From positions 128,001 to 192,000 of the IMG/VR virus record IMGVR_UViG_3300021431_004524: a DNA stretch of 64,000 bases. One strand, 5' to 3'. The notes under the pieces are model-generated. The model was not told the DNA's origin and searched no databases. It saw only the letters and a list, made by a program, of their open reading frames with translations. Within the stretch, counting starts at the first letter, position 1. Each line of letters begins with the position of its first letter. Below, piece after piece: positions 7,664-27,634 of the stretch. Source of the DNA: a virus. Taxonomy: Duplodnaviria > Caudoviricetes. The position numbers and the translations under genes were made by a program.

Positions 7664-7815
7664 GCCCTGTTAGCTCAATTGGTAGAGCAGCGCACTTGTA
7701 TAATGGAGTAAACCATTAATAAAAATCAAGACTATATAGATAGGTATTATAATAAGGTTCGAATCCTTTATATAGTCCAATGCGCAGGTTGTTGGTTCGA
7801 TTCCGACACAGGGCT
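7664..7815 (+). tRNA. tRNA-Thr(TGT) with 79-nt intron (7700-7778)
   Basis: GCCCTGT/ACAGGGC; GCGCA CTTGT|...|AA TGCGC. Confidence 0.87.
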
Positions 7816-8797: not shown

Positions 8798-8951
8798 GAC
8801 TCCGTAGCTCAGTGGTAGAGCACCTGACTTTTTTAACGGAGAGAACCGTCTTAAACACATTTCCATGTTTAAAAGTGGTGAAACAGATGAAAGTCCGACT
8901 CTTTCACATGGAACAATCAGGGAGTCATGGGTTCAAGTCCCATCGGAGTCA
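8798..8951 (+). tRNA. tRNA-Lys(TTT) with 82-nt intron (8833-8914)
   Basis: GACTCCG/CGGAGTC; CCTGA CTTTT|...|AA TCAGG. Confidence 0.87.
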
Positions 8952-10636: not shown

Positions 10637-11308
10637 ATGGATTCAAGTTGGAAATACCCAAGAACGTTTCACGTCCCGTTCTCAGAAGGGTTACAGAATG
10701 ATGACAGACGTGTTGATGACGATTGGTTTTCCTATTTGAAGGGAAAGGAACTTATTCTTAGCGAAAAATGCGACGGTGAGAATAATTCTATATCTCGTTA
10801 TGGTGTTTATGCTCGTTCTCATGCAGCACCTACAAGGAATCCTTGGTCAATAAACCTATGGGGAAATGACGGACTTTATTGGAGAGTTAAGGATTTGATT
10901 GGTGAAGATGAAATGATTTACGGTGAGAACTTATATGGTGTTCATTCAATTGAATATAACAGGTTGAAGGAATATTTCCATATGTTTGCCGTAAGGGATG
11001 AAGAGAAATGGTATTCTTGGGATGATGTTTCAGAAATGGCACAGATTCTTGATTTGCCGACTGTTCCTGTATTGGAAAGACGTTCATTTGACACTGAGGA
11101 TGAATTAAAGGAACGTGTATTATATTGGATGACGCAAGGCAGTAGGTATGGTGATACTATTGAGGGTGTTGTTATCCGTAATGCAGATAGTTATCCGATT
11201 GATGAGTTTTGCCATAATGTTGTGAAGTATGTACGTAAGAATCATGTTCAGACTGACCAATTTTGGGCAAAGAATTGGAGAAAAGCAAAAATAACGGAAT
11301 ATTATTAA
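10637..11308 (+). CDS. ATP-dependent RNA ligase (Rnl2-like family)
   Basis: KYPRT.H, motif I EKCDGEN, YGENL, EGVVIR, KYVR. Confidence 0.88.
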   Translation: MDSSWKYPRTFHVPFSEGLQNDDRRVDDDWFSYLKGKELILSEKCDGENNSISRYGVYARSHAAPTRNPWSINLWGNDGLYWRVKDLIGEDEMIYGENLYGVHSIEYNRLKEYFHMFAVRDEEKWYSWDDVSEMAQILDLPTVPVLERRSFDTEDELKERVLYWMTQGSRYGDTIEGVVIRNADSYPIDEFCHNVVKYVRKNHVQTDQFWAKNWRKAKITEYY

Positions 11309-11361
11309 CAACTTTTAATGAAAAATATTTGTGTATTTCAATGATTATTTGTACTTTTGCA
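11305..11361 (+). promoter_or_regulatory. Bacteroidota-type promoter for tnpB
   Basis: TTTG-N20-TACTTTTG. Confidence 0.7.
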
Positions 11362-11383
11362 CTCAGTTAATGAAAAAAAAATT

Positions 11384-12589
11384 ATGAAAAGAGGTTATAA
11401 GTATCGTATTTATCCAACAGAAGAGCAGAAGAATTATTTTAAGGTATGTTTTGCAGCAAACAGATGGTTTTGGAATTATGCTTTAGATAAAATCAATGCA
11501 CAATATGAAAAAGATAAAACACATTTGTCAGCACAATATAAGATTGCACGTGATTTACCATCCTTAAAAAAAGAGGAAAGTACATGTTGGATTGGGCACT
11601 GTGATGCAATGTCTTTTATTTACACGGCGCAAGCACTTGATGCATCTTTTAAGAAGTTTTTCAAGAAAGAAGGTGGGTTTCCAAAATATAAGTCGGCTAA
11701 ATATGATAATTCTTATACAATACAAATACAAGAAAAAGGTAAAACAATCATTGATTGGGATAAATCAATGATAAGAATAGGTAAAGCCGGCGATGTAAGT
11801 ATTGTTTTGCATAGGAAATTTAATGGGGTTATTAAATCGGTAACAGTTTCCAAGAAGAGTTTTGACTATTACGAAGTTTCACTTCTTGTTGATGATAATT
11901 TCGTCAAGCCGTCCGAAAAACGTATAACTACGTATGATGGTACTGTTGGAATCGACCTTGGGGTAAAATCCGATTCAAATGTAATTTTAACTGATGGCAC
12001 TAAATTTCCTGCAATTGAAGTAGGACGTGAAACTAAACGTATTGCAAGACTTAGACGTAGACTTTCCAAGAAGGAATGGAAAAAAACCGGTGAGAAAAGA
12101 TTTTCCAAAAAATATGGTAAGGAAGTTGATGTAAAAGTTCCCTCCAAGAATTACATAAAGTTAAAGAATCGTATTGCGAAACTTGAAGATGAAATTGTCA
12201 GAAAACGTACTTATAATACGCATATGATTACATCTTATGTCGCTAAGAATCCAAACGTCAATACGGTCTGCATTGAAGATTTGAATGTTAAGGGAATGGC
12301 TAAGAACCATCATATTGCAAAGTCCGTAAGTAATGCGAATATGGGTGAGGTTAAAAGGCAACTTGAATATAAATGTGATTGGAATGGAAAGAATCTGGTT
12401 ACTGTTGACAGATTTTATGCAAGTTCACAAATCTGTTCGTGTTGTGGGTTTAAAAACGAAAAGGTGAAGAATTTGTCGGTAAGACAATGGGTCTGTCCGA
12501 ATTGCGGGGTACATCATGATAGGGATGTGAATGCCGCACTTAATATTAAAAATGAAGGATATAGAATTATAACTGAAGGAAAACAGTGA
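11384..12589 (+). CDS. tnpB: TnpB / Cas12f-like RNA-guided RuvC nuclease, catalytically intact
   Basis: YKYRIYPT HTH start; RuvC D (GIDLG), E (IEDL), D (DRDVNAA); CSCC/CPNC Zn finger; likely start ATG 11384; no tnpA nearby. Confidence 0.92.
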   Translation: MKRGYKYRIYPTEEQKNYFKVCFAANRWFWNYALDKINAQYEKDKTHLSAQYKIARDLPSLKKEESTCWIGHCDAMSFIYTAQALDASFKKFFKKEGGFPKYKSAKYDNSYTIQIQEKGKTIIDWDKSMIRIGKAGDVSIVLHRKFNGVIKSVTVSKKSFDYYEVSLLVDDNFVKPSEKRITTYDGTVGIDLGVKSDSNVILTDGTKFPAIEVGRETKRIARLRRRLSKKEWKKTGEKRFSKKYGKEVDVKVPSKNYIKLKNRIAKLEDEIVRKRTYNTHMITSYVAKNPNVNTVCIEDLNVKGMAKNHHIAKSVSNANMGEVKRQLEYKCDWNGKNLVTVDRFYASSQICSCCGFKNEKVKNLSVRQWVCPNCGVHHDRDVNAALNIKNEGYRIITEGKQ

Positions 12590-12595
12590 ATAAAA

Positions 12596-12760
12596 AACCC
12601 TACCCAGGTGTATCGGGGATGTTAAGTCTGTGGATTACCCTCTAATGGATGAACGTGATTTATCACCTAAAAAGTTATGGTAAGTTGAATCAGAAAAACG
12701 GTTTACAACAAGTAAACGACCACCTAAGAAGCGATTTTTAGGTAACATTTTTAAAAGTAA
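12596..12760 (+). ncRNA. omegaRNA/tracrRNA-like segment
   Basis: Typical TnpB 3' flank pattern (GGGGATGTTAAGTCTGTGGA...TGAATCAGAAA) with hairpins; CACCTAA and TAACATTTT complementary to the CRISPR repeat. Confidence 0.6.
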
Positions 12761-12791
12761 TGTGGCGTAATCAATGCTTTATTGGAAATAT

Positions 12792-13197
12792 GGTGTATGC
12801 TGTATTAAAATGTTAGGTAAATACAACTGGAGTTGGTTGCATCCATTAGCGACAAAGCGGTGTATGTCATATTAAAATGTTAGGCGAATACAACAGGACT
12901 TCAAACCTACCCTCGAAAAGAACGGGTGTATGCCTCATTAAAATGTTAGGTGAATACAACCAGTAGTTAAGAGCCTCTTAAAGCAATGGGGTGTATACCA
13001 CATAAAATGCTAGGTAAATACAACTCAGACAGTCGAATGTTTCTTTGTCCTTTGGTGTATACTACATTAAAATGCTAGGTAAATACAACTTATTTCCTCT
13101 TGTTTCTTCGCTATTGAGGATGTATGTCACATTAAAATGCTAGGTGAATACAACGACCCGCTATCAAGGTCTTCCAATTGTTTGGTGTATGTTACAT
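12792..13197 (+). CRISPR. CRISPR array: 6 full 35-36-nt repeats plus a truncated 7th, 6 spacers of 29-31 nt
   Basis: Repeat GGTGTATnnnnnATTAAAATGYTAGGYRAATACAAC at 12792, 12859, 12925, 12990, 13054, 13119, (13184). Confidence 0.93.
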
Positions 13198-13211
13198 GAG
13201 ATTTGTATTAC

Positions 13212-13282
13212 TGGACCATGGTGTAATGGTAGCACCACAGATTTTGGTTCTGTCAGTTTCGGTTCGAATCCGGATGGTCCAA
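13212..13282 (+). tRNA. tRNA-Gln(TTG)
   Basis: TGGACCA/TGGTCCA; ACAGA TTTTGGT TCTGT. Confidence 0.9.
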
Positions 13283-13288
13283 CTATTT

Positions 13289-13360
13289 TGGAGATTGGTG
13301 TAATTGGCAACACGTGACACTCTGGATGTCAAATTATCAGTCCGAGTCTGGTATCTCCAA
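13289..13360 (+). tRNA. tRNA-Gln(CTG)
   Basis: TGACA CTCTGGA TGTCA. Confidence 0.87.
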
Positions 13361-13367
13361 CTAATTT

Positions 13368-13412
13368 GGCTTCATGCCGATACTCGTCCGGGTTCGAGTC
13401 CCGGTGAAGCCA
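13368..13412 (+). ncRNA. tRNA minihelix (acceptor plus T-arm only; Leu-like acceptor)
   Basis: GGCTTCA-13nt-CCGGG TTCGAGT CCCGG-TGAAGCC-A. Confidence 0.7.
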
Positions 13413-13484
13413 CTAAACAAATAGTCATTTAGTATTGAAAAACTGTTAAACTATATTTATATTAATATTAAATTTAATTAAAAG

Positions 13485-13784
13485 ATGGATGATATACTTG
13501 ACAGATATTTAGATGAAACACTTCTTACTGAGGAAGAGAGACAGAAAGTACAGCAACTTGCCGGTGATTATAATAGATTAGATATGGATTTATTTATAAG
13601 CAGAATTGGGGGTGCTGAAAAGATTGAAGAAATGAGGCGTATCAATGACAAGGCTGATAGAATGTATGTTGTCGATGGCGTAGTACATCATAAATCTGAC
13701 AAAACAAATGAAGATATTGAGGAATGGAAGAAAGGTTTTATGGAAGGATTTGAAGAAGCATACAAAAGATTAAACATGAAATAA
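13485..13784 (+). CDS. hypothetical protein
   Basis: 99-aa acidic ORF after a TATTTAT motif. Confidence 0.65.
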   Translation: MDDILDRYLDETLLTEEERQKVQQLAGDYNRLDMDLFISRIGGAEKIEEMRRINDKADRMYVVDGVVHHKSDKTNEDIEEWKKGFMEGFEEAYKRLNMK

Positions 13785-13806: not shown

Positions 13807-14204
13807 GGGGATAACAGGAATTTGACAGCAAGTATGAAATGGTCTGTAAGCATGCAGTGTGAAGACTATTACACCTAAATCAATTGGTCGAACAATTAAT
13901 TGGCGAAACAACTTACGCTCTCGCTGCCTAATCGAAGTACAGTAGGTTACTGGCTTAATTCCCTTACAAGGTGAGGGAACGAGACATCACTTAATGAGTT
14001 ATTTTCTGAGACTTGTTAGTATAGTGGTGCAGGGAAATCAGAAATAGTCGGTCTATGCCTTGATGGATTGATGAAATTTAAAAGGATAAGAATGCAATTT
14101 GGTAGTCCAAGTCGTGTTGCATTATGAAAATCAAAATTGAACTAAGCATGTAGAAAGCATATTGTTTCCTTGTTTGGACGAGGTTTCGATTACCTCTATC
14201 TCCA
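13807..14204 (+). ncRNA. ssrA: tmRNA
   Basis: GGGGAT...GAATTTGAC 5' end; tag GETTYALAA* (13902-13931); 3' GACGAGGTTTCGATTACCTC-TATCTCCA. Confidence 0.93.
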
Positions 14205-14215
14205 CAAATTAGGAT

Positions 14216-25861: not shown

Positions 25862-26428
25862 ATGGCAAAGGTTACTATTACATTTACAGAGGAACATATC
25901 AAGTTGATAAGGTGTCTTAGGTTTAAACAGATTGAAATAAGACATGAGAAGTCAGAACTTGGGAAGTATACCAATTACATACGCAAGAAACTTGATGCGA
26001 TTAACGGAACAATTGAAATAGGTGAGGAAATCCATGACATCTCAACTAAGTTGGATGCAATAGACAGGATTTCGGCAATTTCAAAGGCTTATGCGGCAGA
26101 GGATGTTGACAAGTATTATGGAATTGATACGTATGACCTGTTCAATTGCGACTATTGGTATGACCAAATGGCACATATTGTCGGATTGTCAGACAAGGTG
26201 ATACCGGGGACTGAAGAGGATACAAACGGTCCGAAATACCCCGAAGAGGTTATTAAACATCTTATGGAATTGGATGATTTCCTTGTAACTAACATCGTGA
26301 GTATCGAGGATATTATCCACCAATTCTGTAACAGGGGCGGTATAGAAGCCGGTGTTACATATGTATCATATGACTATGAAGGCATATGGTATAAGGAAGA
26401 GGATTGGAAGAAAATAGGTAGAAGATAG
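25862..26428 (+). CDS. hypothetical protein
   Basis: 188-aa ORF. Confidence 0.7.
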   Translation: MAKVTITFTEEHIKLIRCLRFKQIEIRHEKSELGKYTNYIRKKLDAINGTIEIGEEIHDISTKLDAIDRISAISKAYAAEDVDKYYGIDTYDLFNCDYWYDQMAHIVGLSDKVIPGTEEDTNGPKYPEEVIKHLMELDDFLVTNIVSIEDIIHQFCNRGGIEAGVTYVSYDYEGIWYKEEDWKKIGRR

Positions 26429-26587
26429 TTTATTTTTAATTTTTATATTTATAATAATAAGGAGTGACGCTATTCACATAGAATCACTCCTTTTTTTGAC
26501 TATATATACTAAACTTTAATTAAAATTACGAGTACTCGTTAAATAATTTTGCCTAAGTTTATAAAATTGAAGAATCAAGTAAATTCT

Positions 26588-27634
26588 TTACGTATGCACA
26601 CCACGCACAAGAAGACCAAGGCGGCGGAGTGGGTCGTACATAAATGCCCCCTCCTCATAGGTGACAGTCAAGCCGTAGGCTTTGGTACTATTGTAAGGCG
26701 TAGAACTCCAATAGTTGCATTCAATACCTTTTTTGGAACCACCGCTGTAGTTGCCACCAGCAGGTAAAAACAACATATTTCCGCTCGAATTGAAAACGCT
26801 TCCGTTCACTCCATTGTAAGACACCAAATAATCGTAGCTTAGAGCGGAAAGTTCACTTTTTGTTGGCATTCTCCATCCTTCGCCCATTACTTGTGTTGCA
26901 GTATCATAACTTGATGGTAGTGGGTTTTCAGTACCTGTATAGTATTGGTCTTCATTCTTATAGGTTGTAGAACCAGCTCCCCATTGATAATAGTTTCCAT
27001 AGTCTTGAACTGAGTTTGCTCCAACGTTCTTGATTGCCCAATTAACTCCTTCTATAGATACATAGCTTCTGCTATGATAGTCACTTGGGAGTTGGATAAT
27101 CACTAATGTAGTACTTTGACTTCCACCATTAACAGTTATATTGGCAGTTCTAGCCGTGCTACCACTATTATTACTTGATGCAGTTACGTTTATCTTACCG
27201 CTTGAATAAGTAACAGTAGCCCAAGATGGTACATTACTGAAGGTTACATTACCGCAATCAATACTACCACGACTTCCGCTAGTTCCGTCAAGCAAAATAC
27301 CTCCATAACCTAGTTGTAATGGTTTTGCATATTGTCTAATATTGAGAGTTATTGTTTTATTGCTATCATTTTGTTTTAGTACTACGTTTCCACTTCTTTC
27401 GTAGTATGTTGAATTGGCACTGTATCTAATAGTAACTCTAGTTGCCGCAGTTGTTACACCTGTTACCACTGTTCCATCATAAGAAACTACTGAATATCCT
27501 ATGTTAGTGCCGTTTGCAGTTGATGTTATATATACGTTAGTGGAACTGCTACTATAACTTACACTGACAGATGTTGATTGTGCGCTGAACACATACTCAA
27601 TACTGTCTCCACCTAATAAATTTCTTCTTCTCAT
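26588..27634 (-). CDS. BACON/Ig-like plus C-terminal C-lectin-fold (Fib_succ_major/Mtd-like) protein, probable DGR target
   Basis: MRRRNLL start; RSGNVVL/RTANITV BACON-like; WAIKNVGA, GNYYQWG, WRMPT, YWSST...GLLVRGV. Confidence 0.78.
   Translation of the reverse strand: MRRRNLLGGDSIEYVFSAQSTSVSVSYSSSSTNVYITSTANGTNIGYSVVSYDGTVVTGVTTAATRVTIRYSANSTYYERSGNVVLKQNDSNKTITLNIRQYAKPLQLGYGGILLDGTSGSRGSIDCGNVTFSNVPSWATVTYSSGKINVTASSNNSGSTARTANITVNGGSQSTTLVIIQLPSDYHSRSYVSIEGVNWAIKNVGANSVQDYGNYYQWGAGSTTYKNEDQYYTGTENPLPSSYDTATQVMGEGWRMPTKSELSALSYDYLVSYNGVNGSVFNSSGNMLFLPAGGNYSGGSKKGIECNYWSSTPYNSTKAYGLTVTYEEGAFMYDPLRRLGLLVRGVHT

Follow-up and report, generated by a model that had tools for sequence, protein, structure and literature searches.

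Cas12 nucleases are usually thought to have arisen from TnpB when the omegaRNA was split and its 3' end was duplicated into an array, while capture of an array is possible but undocumented (PMC10691335). Altae-Tran et al. reported 40 array-linked TnpB branches and left open whether duplication or insertion near an existing array accounts for them (PMC10691335). In the accessible parts of three more recent texts, TranC systems are presented as TnpB-to-Cas12 intermediates of ~300-600 amino acids (aa) with split guide RNAs, spread over many independent clades (10.1101/2025.09.28.678669; PMC13565253; 10.64898/2026.03.27.714800); their source study (Jin et al., Cell 2025, doi 10.1016/j.cell.2025.09.004) is represented here by the papers that cite it. 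The available part of one preprint covers TranC clades 3, 9, 11 and 20, including the phage-borne CauTranC9, and states that clade 3 differs from TnpB only by an enlarged RuvC helix (10.64898/2026.03.27.714800). As far as these sources go, intermediates between TnpB and Cas12 have thus already been described, one of them in a phage, and the kind is not new. The omegaRNA of ISDra2 TnpB was read by the authors of its structure as a natural single-guide RNA, in which parts resembling a CRISPR RNA (crRNA) and a trans-activating crRNA (tracrRNA) are joined by a tetraloop; in that structure the bases -5 to -3 before the guide pair with bases -103 to -105 near the 5' end (PMC10097598). Here we describe a locus in which a tnpB gene, an omegaRNA-like segment and a CRISPR array follow one another. 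It lies in a 64,000-nucleotide (nt) stretch of viral DNA, hereafter the window (positions 128,001 to 192,000 of IMG/VR record IMGVR_UViG_3300021431_004524).

The window is part of a 235,653-bp record, estimated to be 60% complete, from a large phage of gut or rumen Bacteroidota; absences reported below for this record apply to the part covered by it. We read the locus as a TnpB-CRISPR system of TranC type that has a split guide and has been domesticated by the phage, a reading based on sequence comparison to which we assign a probability of about 0.7. The comparisons indicate that tnpB, a 175-nt omegaRNA-derived scaffold and the array are one conserved module and that TnpB uses the array. The original prediction, made from the window alone, had proposed an omegaRNA turned tracrRNA for a captured array. 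Its first half is supported computationally by conserved adjacency, scaffold covariation, complementarity to the repeat of the same locus and pseudoknot covariation. The capture, an unproven proposal about origin, is favoured by the family to which the repeats belong (type VI-B, see below). The features of the locus, in order along the window, are:

11352-11359, plus strand: Bacteroidota-type -7 promoter box (TAnnTTTG) with TTTG 24 nt upstream; motif match only.
11384-12589, plus strand: tnpB-like gene, 401 aa and stop, for a predicted RNA-guided RuvC nuclease; open reading frame (ORF), profile and PDB matches.
11954-11956, plus strand: codon of RuvC-I Asp191 (GIDLG), aligned to ISDra2 D191; invariant in 19 relatives.
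12077-12139, plus strand: insert of ~20 aa (residues ~232-252) seen in the alignment; the model predicts a beta hairpin at the tip of the RuvC helical hairpin.
12275-12277, plus strand: codon of RuvC-II Glu298 (CIEDL), from the ISDra2 alignment; invariant in 19 relatives.
12434-12505, plus strand: zinc-finger (TNB) cysteines C351, C354, C371 and C374 (CxxC...CxxC), Pfam PF07282, E 2e-25; invariant in 19 relatives.
12524-12526, plus strand: codon of RuvC-III Asp381 (HDRD), from the ISDra2 alignment; invariant in 19 relatives.
12599-12773, plus strand: omegaRNA-derived scaffold, read as a tracrRNA, with a 5' hairpin, long-range stems, two stem-loops and an anti-repeat (RNAalifold, 16 loci).
12609-12613, plus strand: 5'-hairpin loop bases TGTAT, proposed pseudoknot partner of ATACA in the repeat, from covariation and from a position matching the ISDra2 pseudoknot.
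12722-12743, plus strand: conserved terminal hairpin ACCTAA...TTAGGT, which holds CACCTAA; alignment columns 145-152/157-164 covary in cis.
12743-12773, plus strand: anti-repeat; its TAACATTTT is the partner of AAAATGTTA in every repeat, and repeat positions 1-15 take part in a second, weaker helix.
12774-12791, plus strand: remainder of the leader before repeat 1, read from the sequence.
12792-13197, plus strand: CRISPR array with six spacers; repeat family matching Bacteroidales type VI-B.
12792-12827, 12859-12894, 12925-12960, 12990-13024, 13054-13089 and 13119-13154, plus strand: six repeats of 35-36 nt.
12828-12858, 12895-12924, 12961-12989, 13025-13053, 13090-13118 and 13155-13183, plus strand: six spacers of 29-31 nt.
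13184-13197, plus strand: seventh repeat, truncated.

Several elements named in the original prediction were recovered in this way: an intact 401-aa TnpB with its D-E-D triad, a six-spacer array some 200 nt past the stop (the first repeat begins 202 nt after it) and repeats described as variable near positions 8-12 with a conserved 3' half (positions 8-13 differ in each copy, and the 3' 22 nt are conserved). The transposase, cas1 and cas2 that it had missed in the window are likewise missing from the longer record, where no Y1 TnpA, Cas1 or Cas2 was found. The promoter that it had assigned to tnpB stands as a Bacteroidota-type box ahead of the ATG.

The window protein (P0001) matched the NCBIfam model guided_TnpB (RNA-guided endonuclease TnpB family) with 283 bits against a cut-off of 100, and aligned end to end with ISDra2 TnpB (PDB 8BF8/8H1J, E 1e-47, residues 3-392). 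ISDra2 TnpB is its best match in sequence and in fold and has the same catalytic triad and zinc finger (PDB 8H1J, 8EXA; PMC10097598). When an AlphaFold2 model of the protein (pLDDT 83.6) was compared by Foldseek, 8h1j was recovered with TM scores of 0.76/0.83 and ISFba1 TnpB was also among the closest folds. LaTranC reached a TM score of 0.71, with a sequence match (E 9e-32) confined to the C-terminal half, so that the window protein is nearer to ISDra2 TnpB than to LaTranC. Matches to Cas12f were weaker still, with a PDB hit at E 7e-6 over the C-terminal half only and a TM score of ~0.57; no NCBIfam Cas12f model matched, the common TNB domain PF07282 being the only one found. Sequence and predicted fold thus place the nuclease nearer to TnpB than to the established Cas12 subtypes. 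The ~20-aa insert is confined to the core of the clade described below and is missing in the alignment from an array-bearing 385-aa sister group and from every outgroup. For TranC clade 3 an "enlarged bridge helix" has been reported, of which this insert is reminiscent.

The organisation of the locus corresponds to that of TranC as described in the accessible sources, in that a compact TnpB-derived RuvC nuclease is followed by an array, lacks cas1 and cas2 and has its omegaRNA-derived guide apparently split into tracrRNA and crRNA. CauTranC9, from a Caudoviricetes genome, could be compared by description only (10.64898/2026.03.27.714800, in its available part): it is also phage-encoded, with a short array, an ISDra2-TnpB-like predicted structure and no expanded REC/WED, but its repeats are 38 bp long instead of 36 and it is reported without the C-terminal domain of ISDra2 TnpB. 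Like type V-F Cas12f, the window system has a miniature effector, a downstream array and two predicted repeat:anti-repeat contacts, one of them a pseudoknot (PMC10097598).

To what extent the gene and the array belong together was addressed with relatives drawn from IMG/VR, JGI metagenomes and other assemblies. A protein search returned ~90 clusters with identities of 48-96%, followed by the 385-aa group at 41-46%; many of the former came from contigs of 260-393 kb. In a maximum-likelihood tree of 74 proteins, the array-linked TnpBs formed a single clade of 19 rows with a Shimodaira-Hasegawa-like approximate likelihood ratio (SH-aLRT) support of 100; 14 rows had arrays, 2 had degenerate ones, 1 had none and 2 were unscored for shortness of the downstream DNA (one of these, L016, shows the start of an array). 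The clade spans protein identities of 44-98% and is found mostly on phage contigs of 260-390 kb. A full array is therefore present in 14 of its 17 loci with enough downstream DNA, and in all array-bearing clade loci the array, of 36-nt repeats, starts 185-226 nt past the stop. That orthologs should keep the array adjacent had been proposed as a check of the original prediction, and the outcome agrees with it. A few loci depart from this pattern. L174 and L175, which are 82% identical and occupy the genomic site of the window, have some three irregular repeats, L182 has two units that abut each other, and L178 lacks the scaffold as well as the array. Beside 55 outgroup TnpBs (<=42% identity) no array was found, bar one separate small clade (L029, L150) whose repeat is a different one. 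The genes next to the module vary by phage (RNA ligase and tRNAs, T4 gp13/gp25-like genes, PARG/NADAR, NAD synthase, TelA), which excludes simple hitch-hiking with a fixed neighbourhood. The pairing of gene and array is beyond chance.

Two of these loci deserve separate mention. L178 (L178:3001-4700) encodes a 59% identical TnpB with an altered C-terminus that is ATGA-coupled to a NAD synthase gene, and may be a TnpB that lost its guide RNA. In the small outgroup clade, whose TnpBs are 36-37% identical to P0001, tandem repeats follow the omegaRNA scaffold (L029:3650-3900, L150:1330-1600, L033:1400-1700; also L160). The repeat units measure ~37 nt, GTTGCCGAGCAAC...GGTCGTCCAC, the spacers between them ~36 nt or more, and this array looks like an independent origin.

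The scaffold was analysed in an alignment of 16 units running from its start to the end of repeat 1. RNAalifold predicted 29 scaffold pairs, of which 21 show compensatory changes, in a fold comprising the 5' hairpin, a long-range TCTG/CAGA helix, two inner stems and two stem-loops. Since its conserved motifs ...GTTAAGTCTGTGGA... and ...GAAnCAGAAAAA... also occur in the canonical omegaRNAs of outgroup TnpBs, the scaffold is omegaRNA-derived, which agrees with the omegaRNA-like 3' flank of the original prediction.

Across the clade, a segment 3' of the last conserved hairpin is complementary to the first ~25 nt of the repeat of its own locus. The repeats diverge strongly among loci and this segment changes in step, as in L021 (CGGTTTCACAGTTAAGTT against AAGTTACTGTGAAACG) and L177 (AGCATTTACAAT against GTTGTAAATGCC). 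Duplexes were computed with RNAduplex between scaffold positions 129-182 and the first 28 nt of the repeat, a 110-nt span being too noisy. Cognate pairs averaged -15.5 kcal/mol and non-cognate pairs -9.8 kcal/mol (standard deviation 3.0; Mann-Whitney p=1e-7), and an ungapped score gave p=6.6e-5, both p-values being indicative rather than exact because the sequences are related. The own repeat was the best partner in 9 of 14 rows. Three motifs of the flank had been named in the original prediction as complementary to the repeat, and all lie where they had been placed; TAACATTTT (12743) is the anti-repeat, whereas TCACCTAA (12663) and CACCTAA (12721) are the 5' strands of hairpins internal to the scaffold. 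The CACCTAA hairpin covaries in cis, and the TCACCTAA hairpin, as read from the alignment, differs in sequence in L009 yet still pairs.

A second contact appears to join the loop of the 5' hairpin to the 3' part of the repeat. Loop and repeat end covary (TGCAT/ATGCA in L179, TGTCA/TGACA in L182, TGTGC/GTACA in L021); 91.7% of the cells are paired against 83.5% in shuffles, none of 500 shuffles reaching 91.7%. Three of the pairs show compensatory changes, a number met in 2 of 500 shuffles, and slid controls were 12-66% paired. The arrangement corresponds to that of ISDra2, in which the scaffold likewise begins at the 3' end of the gene and scaffold bases ~11-15 form a pseudoknot with bases just 5' of the guide, preceded by a stem. 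In the window, by contrast, array repeats and spacers supply the guide, the pseudoknot strand and the guide-proximal strand of the last stem, which in ISDra2 are provided by the transposon right end. Judging from these pairings, scaffold and repeat in this clade are an ISDra2-type omegaRNA cut in two, with the layout of guide, pseudoknot and stem rebuilt between the parts.

In the window, the anti-repeat is followed by a leader and an array of six different spacers, not by one fixed guide directly after the scaffold. Its repeats begin with GGTG or GATG, one mismatch from the GTTG of most relatives, and the parts facing the anti-repeat core and the pseudoknot loop are kept in all six copies. 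The region 12762-12780 appears to resemble a degenerate 3' half of a repeat. In another clade locus (L181:4463-4558) one 30-nt spacer occurs twice in succession, which points to duplication of a repeat-spacer unit within the array.

The window module is domesticated in phage operons and is not mobile. Its tnpB is single-copy in the 235,653-bp record, and neither a nearby tnpA nor insertion sequence (IS) ends accompany it there, in which it differs from ISDra2. No conserved IS left end was found upstream of tnpB across the clade loci. The expected site of that end is occupied by phage-type promoters or by overlapping genes: in 13 of 17 clade loci, a TAnnTTTG box, identified by motif match, precedes tnpB by 12-59 nt, and in L009 and L178 the ATG of tnpB overlaps the stop codon of a long upstream ORF (ATGA). 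The box at 11352 is the sole one within 11000-13500 of the window, and no plus-strand terminator was found in the window before the tRNA genes that follow the array, in a sigma-70/terminator scan that is uninformative for a Bacteroidota phage. On these two grounds gene, scaffold and array probably share one transcript. The array directly abuts a tRNA-Gln gene; two tRNA-Gln genes follow it with no terminator in between (the stretch from the truncated repeat through these genes is 13184-13361), and in L181 a tRNA gene lies immediately 3' of the last repeat (region L181:4724-4800). The 3' end of the array transcript may be set by tRNA-processing enzymes.

Mobile relatives do exist in a related phage. 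The record of L009 (G001; 334,687 bp, 96% complete), in which Cas1 and Cas2 were not found, carries a canonical IS605-type unit at 314129-318090, where a Y1 TnpA lies between two TnpBs that are 34-35% identical to P0001. This is the only TnpA of G001 and is 7.5 kb from the array-linked TnpB. A fourth TnpB is encoded at another place in G001. A single phage genome can thus harbour TnpBs of both sorts, mobile and domesticated.

Under our reading, a single transcript would run from the promoter at 11352 through tnpB, scaffold and array. The scaffold would serve as tracrRNA, and the array would be processed into crRNAs, each a repeat-spacer unit whose spacer lies 3'; as 55 nt separate the anti-repeat from repeat 1, spacer 1 could work in cis as well. 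The complex of TnpB, tracrRNA and crRNA would cut, by means of D191, E298 and D381, DNA that matches the first ~16-20 nt of the spacer beside a short 5' motif. Its likely role would be to act on mobile DNA, such as that of rival phages, that shares its Bacteroidota host, and spacers would probably be renewed by recombination or by adaptation enzymes that the host provides in trans. Such a system would add a family of predicted CRISPR-programmable nucleases of 385-433 aa with a defined tracrRNA of ~175 nt, and it raises the question of how spacers are renewed in phages without cas1 and cas2.

The repeats bear on where the array came from. A pattern built from the clade repeat ends matched arrays in Segatella buccae ATCC 33574 (17 copies), in a Parabacteroides metagenome-assembled genome (MAG; 9 copies) and in a Dysgonomonas MAG. 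The Segatella and Parabacteroides arrays adjoin cas13b (NF038190, 381 and 426 bits), and the matched Bacteroidales arrays have 36-nt repeats with a period of 65-66. Among 401 sampled Bacteroidales genomes, nine had two or more pattern matches, that is, arrays of this repeat family. Type VI-B repeats are 39-78% identical to those of the phages without gaps, the phage repeats having a mean of 58% among themselves. With gaps, phage and VI-B repeats are as similar to each other as the phage repeats are among themselves (0.69), against 0.54 for shuffled repeats and 0.54 for outgroup omegaRNA 3' ends. Even over repeat positions 5-22, which were free in the search pattern, the identity was 0.42 against 0.30 in shuffles (standard deviation 0.017). 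The reported hallmarks of type VI-B are 36-nt repeats with GUUG/CAAC ends and no cas1/cas2, its spacers being probably acquired in trans (Smargon et al., 10.1101/092577). The phage arrays resemble type VI-B arrays in their 36-nt repeats with 5' GTTG and 3' CAAC, the common repeat end AAGGTAAATACAAC, spacers of ~30 nt and the lack of cas1/cas2 at the locus; they differ from them by their link to TnpB and scaffold and, in several loci, by an A-rich instead of a U-rich loop. By these comparisons the phage repeats belong to the Bacteroidales type VI-B (Cas13b) family, as the original prediction had partly anticipated from repeat length, spacer length and repeat end. No report of a TranC with VI-B-family repeats was found in the texts searched, some of which were available in part. 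With a stricter clade repeat pattern, 17 single chance matches were obtained, with no arrays and no TnpB nearby, and no host array with the repeat core of the window itself was found in IMG/VR or in GTDB genomes.

Because the repeats are of this host family, the array was probably captured, or is common to the host VI-B family, rather than grown from the 3' end of an omegaRNA, and shared descent with VI-B arrays, i.e. capture, is the origin that the repeat sequences favour. More specifically, we propose tentatively, and at less than even odds, that a TnpB lineage of Bacteroidota jumbo phages took over a host VI-B-family array and re-tuned the pseudoknot loop and the last stem strand of its omegaRNA to it. 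If so, a DNA-cutting type V-like effector would be running on the array of an RNA-targeting system. VI-B-like repeats could then let the phage gain spacers through host VI-B enzymes or by recombination with host arrays, and host Cas13b might even read the same transcripts. The ~90 sequence clusters combine a near-TnpB protein, a visibly split RNA and repeats of another CRISPR type from the likely host order, and this combination makes the capture route testable in the clade. VI-B-type repeats co-adapted to an omegaRNA-derived tracrRNA could be a natural test case for array capture.

Alternatively, the locus could be a true TranC-type system that built its array anew, by duplicating the 3' end of its omegaRNA again and again; the likeness to VI-B would then be convergent, for instance if host adaptation enzymes act on both kinds of array. 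For TranC and many Cas12 types, the sources as available propose such a route (PMC10097598; PMC10691335). Leaders with degenerate 3' halves of a "repeat 0" are consistent with it, as is L184, where the scaffold runs into a copy of the 3' 25 nt of the repeat, then 18 nt, then repeat 1; outgroup omegaRNAs, moreover, end ...GGTAGTTCAC, loosely like ...GGTAAATACAAC. We nevertheless consider it rather unlikely, given that the phage repeats resemble outgroup omegaRNA 3' ends no more than they resemble shuffled sequence, match VI-B repeats as well as they match each other, also within positions 5-22, and equal VI-B arrays in repeat length and spacer size. A further alternative, a functionless adjacency in which an orphan VI-B-type mini-array is run on host Cas13b while TnpB keeps a cis omegaRNA guide, would account for the VI-B hallmarks and for the several phage repeats that fold into the hairpin shape of Cas13b repeats; TnpB is the only cas-type effector found in the searched phage records. 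It would leave unexplained that gene and array stay equally far apart although the proteins range from 44 to 98% identity and the neighbourhoods vary, as well as the covariation of anti-repeat and pseudoknot loop with the repeat. No cas13b was found by tblastn in the source record, nor by NF038190 in that record and two further ones (G000-G002), a search without a positive control. The inner hairpin that Cas13b needs is not kept across the clade (67.3% paired against 69.0% in shuffles), only the near-invariant terminal stem being maintained, and in the window the GGTG/GATG repeat starts weaken even that stem. The constraint on the repeats would thus come from the TnpB scaffold and not from Cas13b. 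Most loci, moreover, have no intact omegaRNA 3' end that carries a cis guide of its own, and we regard the orphan array as improbable.

Several observations nonetheless weigh against an active TnpB-CRISPR system in this phage. The window scaffold folded alone is not more stable than shuffles (z -0.25), the covariation tests carry the reservation on related sequences made above, and the variable repeat positions 8-13 weaken the second anti-repeat helix in the window. In L174, the closest diverged relative, the array is decaying, so the window copy may be losing its function too, and L178 shows that a clade member can be without scaffold and array altogether. No credible protospacer was found for any spacer in the phage itself, related phages, GenBank phages, plasmids or, for the seeds, IMG/VR. 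The heterogeneity of the repeat copies, the irregular repeats of the 82% relative at the same genomic site and the partial or complete loss in L182 and L178 could describe a decaying relic, with TnpB perhaps still made and the array no longer used. That the ORF is undamaged and encodes every catalytic and zinc-binding residue, that the partners of anti-repeat core and pseudoknot loop are conserved in 6 of 6 repeats and that the spacers differ from those of a 98% identical relative makes a relic a poor explanation. Least probable by far is an ordinary mobile IS200/IS605 tnpB landed by chance beside an unrelated array. The protein does match NF038281 (IS200/IS605-type TnpB) with 307 bits, under the 425-bit cut-off of that model, and canonical IS605 copies are present in a related phage; but the single copy without tnpA or conserved left end, the synteny of RNA ligase, tnpB, array and tRNA-Gln retained in L174 and L175, and an array link that holds across the whole clade contradict it.

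Spacer content turns over. L014, the 98% identical relative, has only two spacers in common with the six of the window, which indicates recent turnover, and the spacers of L017 and L018 differ from those of the window as well. As for targets, ~70 spacers from 13 arrays gave self matches only by local BLAST against the 235-kb record and all compared loci, and the window array gave nothing significant against GenBank phages or plasmids and chance-level matches only against five whole viral records. In IMG/VR, seeds of 21-22 nt from spacers 1, 2, 3 and 6 had 0 exact matches. For spacer 5, a seed of its first 22 nt had a single match among the GTDB genomes, between genes in a CT-rich part of a Thermoanaerobacterales MAG (L337:2678-2699; 25/29 over the full spacer); we judged this hit to be probably due to chance, with ~0.14 expected and the phylum being wrong. 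In a 385-aa member (L183:2156-2174), a 19-nt spacer matches 15 nt of the conserved scaffold motif GGGAAGTTAAGTCTG of its own and related systems; this short spacer may be aimed at rival copies of the system or be a recombination scar.

Elsewhere in the source record, a repeat-rich stretch (~26,100-26,700) was considered as a second array and rejected, since it is a coding coiled-coil repeat. The window is rich in tRNA genes and includes a transfer-messenger RNA (tmRNA) gene. The latter (13807-14207, Rfam 118.8 bits) is full-length, encodes the tag peptide GETTYALAA and lies within the tRNA region, 600 nt 3' of the array. At 7664-7815 and 8798-8951, Rfam tRNA matches of 152-154 nt, about twice the usual length, suggest tRNA genes with long inserts.

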